The notes under the pieces are model-generated. The model searched no databases and was not told where the DNA came from. It saw nothing but the letters and a program-made list of their open reading frames with translations. A program made the translations under genes and the position numbers. DNA of 64,000 nucleotides from positions 16,924 to 80,923 of IMG/VR virus record IMGVR_UViG_3300015360_000032; one strand, given 5' to 3'. Below are positions 2,076 through 60,475 of the stretch, piece by piece; the first letter of the stretch is position 1; each line of letters opens with the position of its first letter. This DNA comes from a virus.

Positions 2076-2627
2076 TTACTTTGTGCGAGTCTTGATCTTG
2101 CAGCGCTCGATTTTCAATCGCTTGCCCATGAGTTGCCCTGGCGTGACATCAGCGATATCCAGTAACTCTTTCTCCGTAAGGTGCTGCCTTGCCTTGCCGA
2201 GCGCTACATCAATTGAACTCCAGAAGATTTCGTTGTTGACCTTGGCGCGGAAGCTCTTCGGGTCAACGAAGGTTTTCTGGTTGCTCCACTGCTCTACGAT
2301 CTTGGCGAGGTGTACCCCGTTCGTATGCTCAAGCAGGTTCGCATCGTTCAAGATAGCGTGGACTGTCTCAGTGGCATCATTCAGTGCTTGGGTTGCCTCG
2401 TCGATCTGGTGTTCGGCTTTTGAAATCAATTTCAATTGCTCGTCGATCCTCTTTCGTGCCGATGCTTCTTTGGCAAATTTCTGGTTTGCCCCTTCCTCCC
2501 GGGCGAGACTGGTTCGAAGCACTAGCGTCTTGGCTTTGTCTGTCCTTGCCGCTATCACTTTCTCCATTGCGGAGGTTTCTACTTTCTTCTGCCCAACTTG
2601 CGCCCTAGTACGCAGCATGACTGCCAT
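2076..2627 (-). CDS. hypothetical protein between polymerase and primase
   Basis: 183-aa ORF with AAGGAG RBS, basic and coiled-coil-like. Confidence 0.75.
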   Translation of the reverse strand: MAVMLRTRAQVGQKKVETSAMEKVIAARTDKAKTLVLRTSLAREEGANQKFAKEASARKRIDEQLKLISKAEHQIDEATQALNDATETVHAILNDANLLEHTNGVHLAKIVEQWSNQKTFVDPKSFRAKVNNEIFWSSIDVALGKARQHLTEKELLDIADVTPGQLMGKRLKIERCKIKTRTK

Positions 2628-10257: not shown

Positions 10258-10608
10258 TCAGAGGGCCGGCAGGTTAGGGGTGATTCCCCGGATAAACTTC
10301 AGAGCCGCGAGCCCTTCGGTACTATTGCGCCCAACCCCCTCAAGACGACAGGCATTCAGCCAAGCTACCTCCACTTGACGAGCCCCTTCATAACTCTTAA
10401 AGCCTTCGCAGAGTTCTGGCGGGTAGCTGAGAGGAATAGCGGAATCATCGTTTGGGTAACAAAGCGACCACGTTTGAGTCTCTTCATTGAATTTGATTTC
10501 AGTCGCTCGGTGAATCTCTTGCCTACCTAGAAACCCGAGGGGAAACTTGTCGTTGTGCATGGCCTGCACCTCCCCTGCCGGAGTGAAGTCGATGACGTGT
10601 CCTACCAT
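10258..10608 (-). CDS. small protein typical of Ycf46/DUF1257/DUF2997 clusters
   Basis: VIDFTPAG...LGRQEIHRATEIKFNEETQTW...EVAWL pattern, recalled as the fourth partner of such clusters; AGGAG RBS. Confidence 0.65.
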   Translation of the reverse strand: MVGHVIDFTPAGEVQAMHNDKFPLGFLGRQEIHRATEIKFNEETQTWSLCYPNDDSAIPLSYPPELCEGFKSYEGARQVEVAWLNACRLEGVGRNSTEGLAALKFIRGITPNLPAL

Positions 10609-10632
10609 GGTATCTCTCCTTTGAAATCAATG

Positions 10633-10947
10633 TCAAAAGTTTCCGGGTTGCGCAACCGCGCGGGTGAGTGCCATCATGCCCTCTTGGAAGTGCGTCTTAG
10701 CGACGGCTATCCAGCGGGTTGGCTCGGCTTGCTGGATTCTCAAAAACTCGGCATCTTGCTCTGCGGTCAAATCCCCCTCATGCTCCGCGCCGCGAAGGGC
10801 ATCGGTAGCCTGATGCTTCAAGTGTATCTGGGCCTTCAGCAAAAGAATCGCTAGGGCGAAACCCTCTTGCTTGATTTCATTCATCAGGTTAATTTCTTCC
10901 GCGCTCAGATCACGGTACCCTTTGATCAGTCGATGTTGATTTTCCAT
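10633..10947 (-). CDS. acb2: Anti-CBASS protein Acb2 homologue (cyclic nucleotide sponge)
   Basis: MENQHRLIKGYRDLSAEEINLMNEIK and AEPTRWIAVAKTHFQEGMMALTRAVAQP closely match Pseudomonas phage Acb2 as recalled, with Y11 and K26 retained. Confidence 0.88.
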   Translation of the reverse strand: MENQHRLIKGYRDLSAEEINLMNEIKQEGFALAILLLKAQIHLKHQATDALRGAEHEGDLTAEQDAEFLRIQQAEPTRWIAVAKTHFQEGMMALTRAVAQPGNF

Positions 10948-10949
10948 GG

Positions 10950-11144
10950 CTAGCTCCGCTGCCCGATGCCCGTGCCGGTCTGCACGTAGAAGTCAGGCTT
11001 CTTGTTATCCTTGATTTCCCCCCCGGGGCCAGCAAGGACAAGCTCAAGCTCGCGGGTAGCAAGGGCGCATGACTGGCCCTGGAAACCTTGCGCATCAATG
11101 CTCGACGTACCGTCGGGCTTGATTTCAACCACAATCTTTCTCAT
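10950..11144 (-). CDS. DUF2997 family protein
   Basis: IVVEIKPDG...AQGFQGQSCALATRELE...KPDFY is the DUF2997 signature. Confidence 0.85.
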   Translation of the reverse strand: MRKIVVEIKPDGTSSIDAQGFQGQSCALATRELELVLAGPGGEIKDNKKPDFYVQTGTGIGQRS

Positions 11145-11168
11145 GGATATCTCTCCTGTTTTGCGTAG

Positions 11169-11245
11169 TGGCGTGGCGTAAGGGAGTCGAACCCCTGACC
11201 TACCCCTTAGAAGGGGGTTGCTCTATCCTGCTGAGCTAACGCCAC
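11169..11245 (-). tRNA. tRNA-Arg (anticodon UCU)
   Basis: GTGGCGT/ACGCCAC acceptor stem, TAGCTCAG..GGATAGAGC D-arm, ACCCC-CTTCTAA-GGGGT anticodon arm, GGTTCGACTCC T-arm, encoded CCA; 77 nt. Confidence 0.95.
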
Positions 11246-11256
11246 GAGTTGTTGTA

Positions 11257-11703
11257 TTACAGACCCGCGCCGGTGATTTCCAGTGCGACTGTGCCGTCCA
11301 GCTTAGAGATGCGGCGAACCATGTGACCCTTGCGGCGTGCCGCTTCCGTGGTCGCGTGAATGCCATACATCTGAAACAGCTTGCCCATCTGCGCCTGTTC
11401 GCGCGTCTCCGGGCAAGACGCCTTGGCCCCGAGTGCGGCTGCAACGCCACCGCCATAGAAGTCCGTGCGAGCTTCGTAGCTGCCGTCCGCTGTCTTGTAG
11501 AGGCCGACATCATAGCTGGACGAAGCCAGATGGATGACGAAGTCTGCTTGGCCCATGCCTGCCTGATTGGTGAAGTAGGCGCGGGGCGTGGCGTTCTCAA
11601 CCAGGGTGCAAGCAATTCCGCTCTTTGCAAGCTCCTCGACTGCGGCGCGCAGCGCGGAGACGGATTGAATCTTGATCGACTTGATCGAAGAGGTGTGGGA
11701 CAT
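11257..11703 (-). CDS. DUF1257 / Ycf35-like protein
   Basis: MSH start, ALRAAVEEL, YDVG...DGSY...DFY, ARRKGH...DGTVALEI match the family pattern. Confidence 0.82.
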   Translation of the reverse strand: MSHTSSIKSIKIQSVSALRAAVEELAKSGIACTLVENATPRAYFTNQAGMGQADFVIHLASSSYDVGLYKTADGSYEARTDFYGGGVAAALGAKASCPETREQAQMGKLFQMYGIHATTEAARRKGHMVRRISKLDGTVALEITGAGL

Positions 11704-11737
11704 AGGTGCCTTTCGTGTGTTGGGCTAGAGAATTGAA

Positions 11738-11766
11738 AGTGTACTGGAAAATGAAATTGATTTCAA
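11738..11766 (-). promoter_or_regulatory. sigma70-type promoter whose -35 box lies within a palindrome copy
   Basis: Minus strand TTGAAA-N17-TACACT upstream of the DUF1257 gene. Confidence 0.6.
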
Positions 11767-11769
11767 AGG

Positions 11770-12381
11770 TCAGGTCCTCCTCTTAAGGATGATTCTGCGG
11801 GTAGGTGTATCCGCGATTTCCCTCATCTGGATACCTGTCGGGGTCGAGATTGCTTTCAGGCTCGGGCGGGGAATGGACTCGGGCTGGCTCTCCAGAATCT
11901 CAAAGCACTCCCCGATTTCCTCCTCCTCCATGAAGCGGCGAATGTATGAGTTATTGATTTCGATCATCTGCTGTTCTAGCTCTTCCGCGTTCAGGATGTC
12001 CGCATACCCACTGAACATCATGAATCTGTCTCCACACATGTTCTCCCATCCAGTTGGAATGAAAGCCATGATGTTGTAAAGCGGTGCCCCGACCCGCAGG
12101 CGAAGGAACAACGCACCCTCCCTCAGTGGTGCGCCGTTGCGCTTCCAGCTAGCCTGCAAAAGAATCACAGTACCTAGCGGATGCTCAACAGGCGCGGTAA
12201 TCAGTACGCCGGTATGCTCGAATTGTCCTACCTGCATCCTGCTCTGCGCCCCCCGACTGGCCCCGCTAGTAACTGCGGAGATGCGAGCAAACGGCGCAGA
12301 GACCTTCATGGCCCCGTAGGTCGCAAGCGTGTTGCTCATGTTGGCTTTGCCAAAGCCGATTGTGACGGTTGCTTTAGACAT
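11770..12381 (-). CDS. hypothetical protein
   Basis: 203-aa ORF 2 bp after the AAA ATPase stop; basic C-terminal tail. Confidence 0.75.
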   Translation of the reverse strand: MSKATVTIGFGKANMSNTLATYGAMKVSAPFARISAVTSGASRGAQSRMQVGQFEHTGVLITAPVEHPLGTVILLQASWKRNGAPLREGALFLRLRVGAPLYNIMAFIPTGWENMCGDRFMMFSGYADILNAEELEQQMIEINNSYIRRFMEEEEIGECFEILESQPESIPRPSLKAISTPTGIQMREIADTPTRRIILKRRT

Positions 12382-12383
12382 GG

Positions 12384-14066
12384 TTAGCCCCTGCTAGGGG
12401 TAAGAATGCGACGAGTCCTAGGCGTTGCTCCCCCGGGTGATCCCGCTGCTGCGGGCTCGTAGCTCACCGGGGTTGCGTTGTCTTTGGCCCATTTGAGAAT
12501 GCGGTCGATGTTCTCTTTGTGCGATTTTGACATAGGCACCATCTCGCGGATAGCCTTCACGATATGCCGCATTTCCAAGTCTTGCGCATCCTCATCATTG
12601 TAGGAATCGATCAATGCCGACTTGACTGCTGACTCAATCTCCGCAGGGACGTACCCCTCAGTTACTGCCATGAACTCAGCAATCTCCGCAGATTTGAATT
12701 TCTTGATGTCACGCTTGCGCTTGCGAAGGTGAATAGCAAGCACGTCTCTACGGTCGATTGCGTCTGGCAACCCCGATGCAAAGATTTCGTCGAAGCGACC
12801 ACGGCGAAGTAGCTCGGGCGGCAAGCTGTCGATACGGTTCGCGGTGACGATGGTAAAGACTGGCGCGGTGTTCTCCTGCAACCAAGTTAGGAACGTTCCA
12901 AGCACGCGGGACGATGATCCTGCATCGCCGCCGCCTGCGCCTGCTCCCCCTAGTCCCTTGTCGATTTCATCTACGAACAAGACCACGGGGGCCATGCCCT
13001 CGATCATCTTCAATGCCTGACGTACGCGGCTTTCCGAATCGCCAAGCCACTTAGAGAAGACGCGGCCAAAATCCAAACGGACCAGAGGAATCTCAAGCTC
13101 GAAAGCTGCTGCCTTTGCGACAAGGCTCTTTCCGGTTCCGGGTACGCCGGCCAGTACGATCCCCTTCGGCGGCTGAATCCCGTACTCTCGGGCTTCGTCC
13201 GTGAAGCAAGTAGCGCGCAGGCGCAACCAATCCTTAAGCCGGCCCATACCACCGACGTTCTCAATGTCTTCGGTGTGAGTCAGTTCGAGGATTTCTGATT
13301 GCCTAACTATGGCAGTTTTCCCCCTCGCTACCCCTTCAAGCAGCCTGTCCGCAGTGATGGCATCGTCCTGCGCCAAACTCGCATCAATGACGGAAATTGC
13401 CACATAGGTTTCGAACTCCTGCAAGGATAGGCCGAGGCCCATGTTTGCAATCTTGATCAGTTGCTCCTCCGTGACTGTCGAACCTTTCGGGAACGTGCTT
13501 TTGTTCTTCGTCATGTCCTTGATGGAGCGCGAAAGAATGGCCCGCAGTTCCTCTGAATCCGGGGTAGGCAAGTCCGCGACAACTACGGTACCCACGGCAA
13601 GCTCCGTGATCGGGACATCCGGCGTAACGAGAATCGTGCAAACGTTTGTCGATGGCAGGATCGCGGAGTATTGCTGAAGCATCTCCGTGACAATCGGCAT
13701 GCCCACGAGGAACGGCATCGGGTTGATGTAGATAAAGTAGTGAACCTTGTCCCTGCGCAGCGAGACTTGGCTTGTCGGGCCGCGAAGGTCTTCCAGCGGA
13801 GCGCGCAACGCTTCAAGAAAGTCTTTACCGTCGCCTGTTACCTTATGGTCCGCAAAGTTCTCCGTAGTGAAGACGCGGAACCCATTGGTAATGTCCCATT
13901 CCTTATAGGGCTCTCCCGAGCCGACAAGATTCTTTCGCAGGATAAGCGCGGCCCGTAAAACCTCCCGGGTACGTATCTGGATAACTGATCCGCCAGCATC
14001 TGCAAGACGGTGAATGCTGCCCATCAGCATAGCTTCGCTGTGGGGCGCTTGTGCAATAGAAGACAT
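12384..14066 (-). CDS. Ycf46-like AAA+ ATPase
   Basis: VGGMGRLKDWL, PKGIVLAGVPGTGKS, VLFVDEIDK, FLTWLQE, TAN...LPPELLRRGRFDEIF, plus a degenerate N-terminal AAA-like domain. Confidence 0.92.
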   Translation of the reverse strand: MSSIAQAPHSEAMLMGSIHRLADAGGSVIQIRTREVLRAALILRKNLVGSGEPYKEWDITNGFRVFTTENFADHKVTGDGKDFLEALRAPLEDLRGPTSQVSLRRDKVHYFIYINPMPFLVGMPIVTEMLQQYSAILPSTNVCTILVTPDVPITELAVGTVVVADLPTPDSEELRAILSRSIKDMTKNKSTFPKGSTVTEEQLIKIANMGLGLSLQEFETYVAISVIDASLAQDDAITADRLLEGVARGKTAIVRQSEILELTHTEDIENVGGMGRLKDWLRLRATCFTDEAREYGIQPPKGIVLAGVPGTGKSLVAKAAAFELEIPLVRLDFGRVFSKWLGDSESRVRQALKMIEGMAPVVLFVDEIDKGLGGAGAGGGDAGSSSRVLGTFLTWLQENTAPVFTIVTANRIDSLPPELLRRGRFDEIFASGLPDAIDRRDVLAIHLRKRKRDIKKFKSAEIAEFMAVTEGYVPAEIESAVKSALIDSYNDEDAQDLEMRHIVKAIREMVPMSKSHKENIDRILKWAKDNATPVSYEPAAAGSPGGATPRTRRILTPSRG

Positions 14067-14144: not shown

Positions 14145-14173
14145 ATTGTAGGACATGTCAACCGACTTGGCTA
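14145..14173 (-). promoter_or_regulatory. promoter of the AAA module (GTAG-type -35)
   Basis: Minus strand (G)TAGCCA-N17-TACAAT in intergenic DNA downstream of a terminator. Confidence 0.55.
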
Positions 14174-14220
14174 CTTCAGTTTCATTGAAATCAATTTCAT
14201 TTGTGAGTTGAACGCCCAAT

Positions 14221-14243
14221 AAAAAAGCGCCCCGAAGGGCGCT
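14221..14243 (-). terminator. rho-independent terminator
   Basis: AGCGCCC-TTCG-GGGCGCT followed by a T run on the minus strand. Confidence 0.85.
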
Positions 14244-14268
14244 CTGTCCGAAGGCCGTAGCCTGCGGG

Positions 14269-21098: not shown

Positions 21099-21125
21099 AT
21101 CAGTTTCCTTAGATTGAAATCAATT

Positions 21126-21842
21126 TCAATACGATCCGATGAGGGTGGCTACGAGCCCTTTTGCGGTACCGTTACCTATCTGGGTTACGTGGATAGTGAC
21201 CCGCGAATCGTCGGCAATGGCGACATCGCTGATAACCGCAGGAGTGACAGCCGTAACACTGGTTGTTTCTGTGTTGTCGATGGTGAGCAATGTACTTAGA
21301 ACGGTTACTCCATTCTCTCTGATGTCCACAGTGAAGAGCGCGCCGCTTGCTTGCGCCGTTTGCAGAGAGATTCTAACCGCAGCCAGGGTAAATGCGCGGG
21401 GCTGGCGCCAACCCATAACTTCACCAACCTCCAATGGACTCAGATCATAGTCTGAGCAAGCTACTTGCTTTTCATAGTAGTTGGTAATGCCCAGAAGACT
21501 GGTCAGCGTCACCCAGTTAGCAGAGACGTAGGAGTAGTAGCGGGCCTCATCGACCGCGAAAACCAGCCAACCAGATTTGGGGGGAAAGAATTCCCAGATC
21601 GTACCGTTGTACCTTGCGATTTTCTTGTCATGGGTTGACCAAGACCCTGTAGCCGCTGGACCTACGATGTAGGTATCCCCCGAGGTAGGTGACCCGGGTG
21701 GCGCAGTCAAGTCCTTGTCAATCACCTTGGCTTGAGCTAGAGCGTCAACCTTTCTCAGGTTGGCGTTCATGGCATCGCCCCAGAGTGTTTCTCCAAGGAC
21801 CCAACCATGCATCAGTTCAATATTTTGAAGAGCAGCAGGCAT
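21126..21842 (-). CDS. DUF2793-domain tail protein
   Basis: DLTAPPGSPTSGDTYIVGPAATGSW...W.F.PP..GW DUF2793 signature. Confidence 0.85.
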   Translation of the reverse strand: MPAALQNIELMHGWVLGETLWGDAMNANLRKVDALAQAKVIDKDLTAPPGSPTSGDTYIVGPAATGSWSTHDKKIARYNGTIWEFFPPKSGWLVFAVDEARYYSYVSANWVTLTSLLGITNYYEKQVACSDYDLSPLEVGEVMGWRQPRAFTLAAVRISLQTAQASGALFTVDIRENGVTVLSTLLTIDNTETTSVTAVTPAVISDVAIADDSRVTIHVTQIGNGTAKGLVATLIGSY

Positions 21843-25123: not shown

Positions 25124-25144
25124 CGTTATTCCTTGAAATCAATT

Positions 25145-25999
25145 TCAAAAAACAGGGTTTCCGTCGAAAGGGCTCTTACCCTGTAGGTGATTGATCCCAC
25201 CGTAATTCACCATGTTGTTAAACTTCTCACTGCACACACTCGCTATTCTGGCACAGCCGGGGAACGAAGCAACCGTATCGCCTGTGCTAAGTGGTGATGT
25301 CAACCCTTGCAGGGTGATTGTGTCGCCAATATGAGTGCTGATACCCATTCTTTCCGTCACCCCGGCAAGGCTCTCCCACTCAATAAAGCCACCGGAAAAG
25401 TATCCATCGGGCGATAGTGCGAGAGAAGTATGCGCTATCGTTATTGCGTCCACTATAGTGATAAACGCCAGAGTCACCAGAAAAGAGTTTCTGTTTACGT
25501 TGCACCCGCGACCGTAGAGCACATGCGGGCAGTTGCGAGCCCACGATAGGCGCAAGCCCCCACGAGCTAAGGTGATCTGGCTTGTGTTACACACAAAGAC
25601 TCGTTCGTTGAGCTTCGTGCGCTTGATAGTTAGGATTGATCCATTCCAATGCACAGGCGCATCCCCAATCAGCGCGGGGCCAGTGACTACGTTAGCGACG
25701 GCTTCATCGATATGTATTTTTCTCAGCCTGATCTGAATCTCTTCGCTAGGGGTGATCGTATCAAGGTAAGTACAAAGCGGTGCATCCGTGGCTATCGTGA
25801 TGCTCAGGTCATCAGACGCGGCATCGCCGCTCTGTAGTACCGACCCTATCGAAATGGCTACCGGGGTATACACGTTACCTAAAAACGTGATGGGCGTTTC
25901 CAAGTTGGTGTACCGCCACGTAATGCCGGTGCGATAGAACTCATAGAGAAACCCCGGTCGCCCGTCCTGCGCCGAAGTTTCACGACTGTTGAATGACAT
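25145..25999 (-). CDS. BR0599/DUF2163-family tail protein (gpL-like)
   Basis: CPHVLYGRGC, FSGG, PGC......C..KFNN..NYGG cysteine pattern. Confidence 0.88.
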   Translation of the reverse strand: MSFNSRETSAQDGRPGFLYEFYRTGITWRYTNLETPITFLGNVYTPVAISIGSVLQSGDAASDDLSITIATDAPLCTYLDTITPSEEIQIRLRKIHIDEAVANVVTGPALIGDAPVHWNGSILTIKRTKLNERVFVCNTSQITLARGGLRLSWARNCPHVLYGRGCNVNRNSFLVTLAFITIVDAITIAHTSLALSPDGYFSGGFIEWESLAGVTERMGISTHIGDTITLQGLTSPLSTGDTVASFPGCARIASVCSEKFNNMVNYGGINHLQGKSPFDGNPVF

Positions 26000-46426: not shown

Positions 46427-46525
46427 GTGGACTCCAGGCGGCGAAAACTAGGCGTGGGTAAGGTGCATTACTGCATTTTTGAAATCAATTTCAAAGCCCT
46501 AGGGTCGGGTTTACCCAAGCTACCC

Positions 46526-60223: not shown

Positions 60224-60475
60224 TCATTTCCTCTTTGAAATCAATTTCATTTGATGGTCAATCGCGGCTCCAACATCCAAGGTATCTGCTGGAACCCAAC
60301 CCATACCTCCACAGGTCAGGGCAAGGATATAGCGCATGCCGGGTTGGCTATACCCTTTCCCGACAATAGGCCCTAGATAGATCGAGCCGCTATCGATAAG
60401 GAACCTGTACCGCGCGGCCTGAGTCTCCACGGAATCTACTTCCGCGACTGGCTTTGTTCGTTTCTTGTAAATCAT
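60224..60475 (-). CDS. hypothetical protein
   Basis: AARYRFL...AAID motif; ATGA coupling. Confidence 0.6.
   Translation of the reverse strand: MIYKKRTKPVAEVDSVETQAARYRFLIDSGSIYLGPIVGKGYSQPGMRYILALTCGGMGWVPADTLDVGAAIDHQMKLISKRK

Follow-up and report, generated by a model that had tools for sequence, protein, structure and literature searches.

A conserved five-gene phage module built around a Ycf46-type AAA+ ATPase and its possible role as a protein-remodelling system

The subject of this study is a window of 64,000 nucleotides of DNA from an uncultured phage, part of an 80.9-kb IMG/VR virus record (IMGVR_UViG_3300015360_000032; about 85% complete). The one sequencing run listed as containing this DNA in full is a microbial-mat metagenome, which may be its source, and no RNA run is listed as containing it. 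Between positions 10258 and 14066, with every gene on the minus strand, the window encodes a Ycf46-type AAA+ ATPase, a 203-residue protein that we call X, members of two families of domains of unknown function (DUF1257 and DUF2997) and a 116-residue protein, P116. These five genes constitute a module that is vertically conserved across a large clade of tailed phages of about 80–110 kb; in the window a gene for an Acb2 homologue and one for tRNA-Arg lie among them. The explanation that we consider best, with a probability of about 0.5, is that the ATPase would be a hexameric unfoldase, DUF1257 and DUF2997 its cofactor and the tail-bearing proteins its addressed partners, and that the assembly would act at a core stage of infection and not as accessory counter-defence. 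A first-pass annotation of the region had listed the ATPase, 203-residue, DUF1257, tRNA-Arg, DUF2997, Acb2 and 116-residue genes, and all are present as described.

Conservation was followed by iterative profile searches on the open reading frames (ORFs) of three cultured-phage loci and of IMG/VR loci; with Rhodobacter phage RcDurkin added to these, 18 distinct loci have enough downstream DNA. The order ATPase, X (about 205 residues), DUF1257 (about 147), DUF2997 (about 65) and P116 (about 115–130), on one strand, is intact in 16 of the 18: Pseudomonas phage SM1, Aeromonas phage HJ05, RcDurkin and 13 distinct IMG/VR loci. At the remaining two, Agrobacterium phage JP1 and locus L018, the protein in the X position matches the X profile weakly (E values of 6e-4 and 5e-3, respectively) and keeps the same C-terminal tail. 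The DUF1257 gene is linked to the ATPase gene in the window and in 18 of 18 distinct module loci. The cluster had been described as a four-gene module. Its standing as a unit kept in other phages is confirmed by this neighbourhood survey; the number of genes is not, since P116 is a conserved member and the module therefore has five (ATPase, X, DUF1257, DUF2997 and P116). SM1, JP1 and RcDurkin also hold the module in the same place, after the lysis genes and before the replication genes.

The ATPase family is large. A tblastn search retrieved Pseudomonas Samunavirus phages (47% identity), Aeromonas HJ05, Agrobacterium JP1, Rhodobacter RcDurkin and cluster O mycobacteriophages, and 17 cultured-phage records hold a DUF1257 gene. 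Metagenomic homologues number more than 2,900 at E ≤ 1e-10, with about one third of the 120 listed lying on contigs of 88–106 kb. No phage record was matched when the region was compared by megablast; in the scan of viral contigs, a single-protein query found nothing while an alignment-based query found the loci. We found no paper that describes the module, nor any functional study of it, in the literature on DUF1257, DUF2997, phage Ycf46, Samunavirus, PaMx31 and RcDurkin. Its parts are already catalogued as DUFs and the cyanobacterial neighbourhood is already on record; what the window adds are the Acb2 and tRNA insertions, an X fold without solved relatives and the cyanobacterial linkage counts given below.

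The ATPase had been taken to be an intact Ycf46-like AAA+ protein, and both its motifs and its relationships bear this out. It carries Walker A GVPGTGKS (residues 307–314), the Walker B residues Asp366 and Glu367, sensor-1 Asn410 and the Arg fingers Arg421 and Arg424; Walker A, Walker B, sensor 1 and both Arg fingers are invariant among 28 homologues. Pore loop 1 reads KWLG (residues 339–342; family consensus KYVG). An aromatic-hydrophobic-Gly pore loop is the form seen in substrate-threading AAA proteins. The best solved matches are archaeal VAT (PDB 5g4g, E = 5e-73) and the D2 domain of Cdc48, and these cover residues 266–510 only. The non-ATPase N-domain (residues 1–265) gave no match in Pfam, a lenient scan included, or among PDB sequences. 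The window protein shares 36% identity with a Nostoc 'stress-responsive protein Ycf46' (E = 1e-76) over residues 103–526; since this alignment starts at residue 103, the likeness to Ycf46 extends beyond the AAA domain and into the N-domain. A scan of NCBIfam listed generic AAA models alone, all far under their cut-offs, and no Ycf46-specific model appeared.

In a quick maximum-likelihood tree calculated with IQ-TREE, the Ycf46-type ATPases are set off from other AAA proteins as a clade of their own, and the window ATPase falls inside it with cyanobacterial Ycf46 (Shimodaira–Hasegawa-like approximate likelihood-ratio test, SH-aLRT, 98). Within it, the 17 ATPases from module-bearing phages make up a single deep clade (SH-aLRT 100). 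Its separation from the clades of cyanobacterial proteins argues against a recent capture from cyanobacteria. Five metagenomic homologues (P0013, P0028, P0033, P0073 and P0087) are interrupted at the Walker A P-loop by inteins (PF14890), at least one of which has an HNH domain; the insertion lies near residues 311–316 of the window protein.

The window DUF1257 protein scores 20.8 bits against PF06868, below the gathering cut-off of 22.2. The assignment holds despite this score, because orthologues pass the cut-off (SM1, 24.6 bits; HJ05, 34.6 bits), because the ESM Atlas places the window protein among DUF1257 clusters (score 0.92, template-modelling score 0.74–0.86), because BLASTP aligns it to a cyanobacterial DUF1257 protein (E = 8e-7) and because it begins with Met-Ser-His, the 'MSH' motif of Ycf35. 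Virtually every Ycf35 protein is reported to start in this way (PMC13060386). Across 60 diverse DUF1257 proteins MSH is nearly invariant and Asp81 and Tyr113 are invariant; the family profile matches 2,666 clusters at 50% identity and, among the 150 matches listed, 144 align from residue 1. DUF2997 and Acb2 lie above their own cut-offs (Table 1), and the family assignments made for the small ORFs in the first-pass annotation are supported. In DUF2997 the residues Gly12, Gly23 and Cys26 are invariant, planctomycete members included, and a KP(D/E)F(Y/F) motif is present; the G..G..C core is also visible in cyanobacterial sequences.

The structural models gave no functional lead. The confident DUF1257 model (predicted local-distance difference test score, pLDDT, 92.4) is an alpha/beta domain for which Foldseek against the PDB gave E values of 0.2 or above and VIA reached at most Z = 5.3, a background level, with KA1-like domains; profile searches with the DUF1257 and DUF2997 alignments found no match among PDB sequences. 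X, which is confined to this phage clade, is also modelled with high confidence (pLDDT 91.9): a beta-sandwich carries three short helices and is followed by an Arg-rich C-terminal tail that looks disordered. Foldseek found nothing in the PDB for this model at E < 0.02, the best match of a wide VIA search had a Z of 4.1 (generic Ig/C2 sandwiches) and BFVD returned orthologues only. P116 represents an unnamed family with an N-terminal beta-hairpin and a helix of the form FxxYE.AR..EV.WLN. Lenient Pfam scans of X and P116 gave no match. The P116 family was found only in phages and mobile-element loci; in two of the latter, short homologues of 80–85 residues come after the AAA, DUF1257 and DUF2997 genes (E = 8.8e-8 in the Lacipirellula genome). 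A search of three Gloeobacterales genomes did not find the family, which does not prove that it is absent. A likeness of the start of P116 to the DUF2997 hairpin was considered (hhalign probability 29%) and is not claimed.

We were struck by a feature that the ATPase and X have in common. The ATPase ends in ...PRTRRILTPSRG and X in ...TPTRRIILKRRT, and these tails are strongly basic, with isoelectric points of about 11.5–11.8. Among 32 ATPase and X proteins, 27 have a net charge of at least +4 in the last 14 residues, whereas the same holds for 33 of 286 other ORFs and for none of the DUF1257, DUF2997 or P116 proteins (Fisher p for ATPase and X against other ORFs, 9e-18, a value that overstates independence since the sequences are related). 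In X, Arg196 is invariant and Arg195 nearly so, even though both are within the low-confidence tail of the model. The same type of tail is carried by extra proteins encoded between X and DUF1257 in loci L007/L012, L010 and L017, which are mutually unrelated outside the L007/L012 pair, and by the weakly X-like proteins of L018 and JP1; SM1 gp028 has a looser Arg-rich tail. When the window was scanned for the tail pattern, four of about 120 minus-strand ORFs of at least 60 residues matched. The pattern is clear in the ATPase and X alone; of the other two matches, a 183-residue protein is marginal and a short ORF is likely to be spurious. The 183-residue protein (2076–2627, minus strand) is encoded between the primase and polymerase genes, and its basic tail, ...KRLKIERCKIKTRTK, is loosely like those of the ATPase and X.

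Among cellular proteins, those of cyanobacteria came out nearest to the ATPase in a scan of one genome per prokaryotic species. On exact look-up, NCBI and UniRef give them, like the members of a second cyanobacterial set, the name 'ycf46' or 'stress-responsive protein Ycf46'. A DUF1257 paralogue of about 117 residues lies about 75–170 nucleotides (nt) downstream of ycf46, on the same strand, in 20 of 20 cyanobacterial genomes sampled, and in 20 of 20 the DUF2997 gene stands directly upstream of ycf35, the higher-scoring DUF1257 (loci L115–L134 and L086–L105). A ferredoxin gene comes after DUF2997–ycf35 in the three Gloeobacterales loci that were examined fully, an order that agrees with the duf2997-ycf35-fed7 cluster already reported (PMC4284462). 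The Ycf46–Ycf35–DUF2997 set of cyanobacteria and plastids is thus like that of the phages in its homologous ATPase, in the MSH start of DUF1257, in the DUF2997 G..G..C core and aromatic motif and in the pairwise linkage of ATPase to DUF1257 and of DUF2997 to DUF1257. It differs in that the cyanobacterial genes are split over two loci, with two DUF1257 paralogues, an added ferredoxin and no X, and in that the cyanobacterial ATPase is without a strongly basic tail, with GSMVG in place of the KWLG pore loop of the phage protein. Induction of cyanobacterial Ycf46 by stress and by guanosine tetraphosphate (ppGpp) and its interaction with KaiC have been reported, and its function is unsettled there too (PMC13683863). 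The 'three-gene ycf46 operon' of S. elongatus described in the same report may include a DUF1257 gene, because the paralogue follows ycf46 in all 20 genomes.

Other non-phage copies lie in mobile-element contexts. Two Pirellulales genomes have an operon in the order DUF1257, DUF2997, AAA, one of them beside a large serine recombinase, and two contigs of about 20 kb from metagenome-assembled genomes, with ThiF, DnaN-like clamp and PAC2 neighbours, carry AAA, DUF1257, DUF2997 and a short P116 homologue. In one ESM Atlas cluster of 193-residue bacterial proteins DUF2997 is found in 90% of members and DUF1257 in 12%, which hints at fusions. Linkage in phages, cyanobacteria and mobile elements indicates that the AAA–DUF1257 and DUF1257–DUF2997 associations are old and recurrent. 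Two of the non-phage copies may be mentioned individually: L027 (1816–11288) has ThiF, the DnaN-like clamp, a CxxCxxCC protein and PAC2 as neighbours, and L030 (1953–8458) a large serine recombinase. Each holds a protein with a shared 'GKPKIFRDS' motif and an RR-type tail at its end.

In the mechanism that we favour, the ATPase would form a hexameric ring and thread polypeptide through its aromatic pore loop, acting as an unfoldase or disassembly machine, while DUF1257 and DUF2997 would bind each other and serve as the dedicated cofactor of the motor. The Arg-rich C-terminal peptide of the ATPase, of X and of the extra proteins in related phages would be an address for one common docking site, and the tail-bearing proteins would be adaptors or clients. 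The module as a whole may serve a core infection step, for example take-over of the host or the setting up of replication. A core function is suggested by the clade-wide synteny, the fixed place before the replication genes, the deep phage clade, the P-loop inteins and the homology to chromosomal cyanobacterial stress genes (PMC13683863). More tentatively, and as an idea that we think less likely than not to be right, the peptide (roughly RR-h-x-h-RR) might be a transferable address tag that brings unrelated proteins to a Ycf46-type motor with a DUF1257–DUF2997 cofactor, a tag-and-thread system that phages and mobile elements would share with cyanobacteria and red-lineage plastids, where it would be reduced.

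Elements of such a scheme are familiar from other AAA+ machines. Cdc48, p97 and VAT work with cofactors, and PAN docks the 20S particle through C-terminal hydrophobic-Tyr-X (HbYX) tails. The window ATPase is alike in its classical-clade AAA domain, and in both cases short terminal peptides may dock partners. It is unlike these proteins in having one ATPase domain, a novel N-domain, partners from unrelated families, no peptidase that could be identified and a tail that is Arg-rich rather than HbYX or acidic. ClpX provides an example of tail-addressed delivery, through the XB tail of SspB and the basic C-terminal tag of MuA. By analogy, unrelated phage proteins with a common short terminal peptide would be addressed to one AAA+ machine; there is no homology between the two systems, and here the motor itself bears the peptide.

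The value of the comparison lies in what it might explain. For decades ycf46 and ycf35 have had names but no assigned function in the genomes of cyanobacteria and plastids, and the phage module unites their homologues and DUF2997 in one operon. Cultured phages that are amenable to genetics carry the same module (Pseudomonas SM1 and PaMx31, Rhodobacter RcDurkin, Aeromonas HJ05 and Agrobacterium JP1), and the shared tail peptide offers a concrete experimental handle on how the motor chooses its partners. If the tag-and-thread idea is true, working it out in a cultured phage would lead to a function for orphan ycf46 and ycf35.

Several points weigh against the unfoldase scheme and deserve to be set out together. 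Corndog-type mycobacteriophages encode the ATPase (Corndog gp96) with no recognisable partner genes nearby. Conservation does not prove that the module is essential. What the tail binds could be nucleic acid and not a site on a protein. Finally, X and DUF1257 lack an informative structural neighbour, so their roles are guesses; the small proteins are putative adaptors.

The first-pass annotation proposed that the cluster is a protein-remodelling machine for counter-defence, in which the unfoldase and its partners would dismantle or unfold host immune complexes beside the Acb2 sponge. We regard this as unlikely. The module does stand early in an operon, behind a terminator and a promoter-like site, with the Acb2 gene 2 nt downstream of DUF2997, and its AAA domain resembles that of IetA from the IetAS pair, so such ATPases occur in conflict systems. 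The likeness to IetAS and to the sgiAT pair of SGI1, each an AAA+ ATPase with an S8 protease, is nevertheless limited to the AAA domain: the matches (PADLOC IetA, E = 7e-21; NCBIfam IteA, E = 7e-15) span residues 289–528 only, the N-domain and the neighbouring genes differ, and no protease family matched among the ten genes scanned between 9073 and 14721 (six module proteins, three downstream and one upstream). Distribution does not support the proposal either. Acb2 is found in the module at one of the 18 distinct loci, that of the window alone, and in many unrelated phages that do not have the module; the module is syntenic and clade-wide, not patchy, and keeps a fixed place; and its homologues are chromosomal stress genes in cyanobacteria (PMC13683863).

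The Acb2 gene is better understood as independent cargo, and its presence as a neighbour says nothing about what the module does. Judged by its sequence, the product is a member of the family of sponges that counter the cyclic-oligonucleotide-based anti-phage signalling system (CBASS) by taking up cyclic nucleotides. It is 46% identical over its full length to Acb2 of Pseudomonas phage PaMx33 (p26; PDB 8h2j, E = 2e-20, and 8ixz) and keeps the ligand-contact residues Tyr11 and Lys26; it differs in having 11 more central residues and in its position inside an AAA module. Homologues are present in 215 phage records from many unrelated groups, the best matches listed being Pseudomonas and Aeromonas phages of about 40–46 kb. 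The scan of 16 module-bearing phage loci found no tRNA at the DUF1257/DUF2997 position. That Acb2 and the tRNA are inside the module in the window alone indicates local, lineage-specific insertions at gene junctions, and the earlier description of a module interleaved with cargo was correct. tRNA-Arg(UCU) is the sole tRNA of the window, and AGA makes up 16% of the Arg codons in its ORFs; the tRNA may therefore act for the genome at large and not for the module in particular. Different insertions occupy the same junctions, X–DUF1257 and DUF2997–P116, in other loci: an HNH-endonuclease-like ORF in L006 (read by eye), RNase H in JP1 (according to the annotation of the record) and extra proteins of about 200–380 residues. 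The locus also shows that conserved early-operon junctions take up cargo, here Acb2 and a tRNA and in relatives an HNH-like ORF, RNase H and tail-bearing proteins.

Gene order invites another reading, in which the motor would be an accessory of replication or other DNA transactions that remodels or loads replisome or nucleoid proteins, with the Arg-rich tails holding the ATPase and X on DNA. The module comes directly before a gene for a 465-residue protein (SM1 gp34-like) and those for DnaB helicase, PolA and primase, a DnaN-like clamp adjoins it in mobile-element locus L027, and the tails have the high isoelectric points already noted. Gene position alone is weak evidence, Pfam scans detected no DNA-binding domain and cyanobacterial Ycf46 does without a strongly basic tail; we judge this reading to be rather improbable. 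The nearly invariant MSH start of DUF1257, with its invariant Asp81 and Tyr113 and the high proportion of profile matches that align from residue 1, raises a different thought when set beside the conserved C-terminal tail of the ATPase, namely a two-part protease of the HslUV or PAN–20S type. DUF1257 would then be an N-terminal-nucleophile (Ntn) peptidase, its Ser-His exposed once Met is removed, and the ATPase would dock to it by its tail. We think this very improbable: DUF1257 proteins are small (117–150 residues), neither Foldseek nor VIA found an Ntn-hydrolase neighbour for the model, the KA1-like best match being background, and X bears the same tail, a misfit with a role in docking only. 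Also very improbable is a redox- or radical-linked system of protein modification, in which DUF2997, through its only conserved Cys, and DUF1257, through its Ser-His, would act in a chemistry that is backed in other lineages by ferredoxin or radical-SAM partners. It could draw on the ferredoxin that follows DUF2997–ycf35 in cyanobacteria (PMC4284462) and on the CxxCxxCC-domain neighbour in L027; one conserved Cys, however, cannot build a cluster in a monomer, the phage record (about 85% complete) has no match to Radical_SAM (PF04055), and no iron–sulfur protein was seen among the module neighbours scanned with Pfam.

The features of the region are collected in Table 1. A GH108 endolysin gene, an Rz1-like gene and a 150-residue gene lie upstream of the terminator; the genes downstream in the operon encode the 465-residue protein conserved with SM1 gp34, DnaB helicase, a family-A polymerase (PolA) and a Toprim primase. 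With lysis genes on one side and replication genes on the other, the module heads the replication block, and the region is the head of the early/replication operon of the phage. The earlier view of a bounded unit, from terminator and promoter onwards, holds for one of its ends. The terminator is strong (the 53-nt stretch 14210–14262 that spans it folds with a minimum free energy of -23.9 kcal/mol, z = -3.0) and is the 5' boundary of the unit. The promoter, in contrast, is a weak match at 9 of 12 positions, and such sites are not enriched in the region (five found against 4.5 expected in shuffled sequence). There is no 3' boundary: a 91-residue gene begins 2 nt past P116, and the replication genes follow in the same operon.

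Table 1. Features of the module region and copies of the dispersed palindrome, in window coordinates
Feature	Position	Strand	Remarks
AAA+ ATPase, Ycf46 family	12384–14066	-	560 residues; PF00004 E = 1.8e-30; phrog_8638 E = 1.7e-151
X	11770–12381	-	203 residues; no family match; start 2 nt past ATPase stop codon
DUF1257/Ycf35-like	11257–11703	-	148 residues; PF06868 20.8 bits
tRNA-Arg(UCU)	11169–11245	-	Between DUF1257 and DUF2997
DUF2997 (PF11211)	10950–11144	-	64 residues; 34.3 bits (cut-off 24.1)
Acb2 homologue	10633–10947	-	104 residues; PF24729 (Acb2/Tad1 hairpin domain) 56.5 bits (cut-off 27); start 2 nt past DUF2997 stop
P116	10258–10608	-	116 residues; phrog_38408 E = 2e-20
Intrinsic terminator	14224–14245	-	9-bp stem (6 GC pairs), UUCG loop, U6 run; after upstream 150-residue gene
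Sigma-70-like promoter match	14145–14173	-	TAGCCA, 17 nt, TACAAT; 9 of 12 positions; weak
Palindrome copy	14186–14199		Exact; upstream of promoter-like site
Palindrome copy	11752–11765		Exact; X/DUF1257 intergenic gap; overlaps promoter-like -35 hexamer TTGAAA
Palindrome copy	10622–10635		One mismatch; 14 nt before P116 start codon; overlaps TTGACA -35-like hexamer
Further palindrome sites	21115–21128, 25134–25147, 46480–46493, 60236–60249

A palindrome of 14–16 bp, tTGAAATYRATTTCAa, recurs in the window, with 29 sites at one mismatch or fewer; 0.44 are expected in a looser search that allows two mismatches. Among 134 loci compared it is present in this genome and in L016 only. Twelve of the sites are in non-coding DNA, which makes up about 6% of the window, and many lie 11–17 nt before a start codon or 50–120 nt upstream of a gene. 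With only 2 nt separating its arms, the palindrome is more likely to be bound by a dimeric DNA-binding protein than to form a hairpin in RNA.

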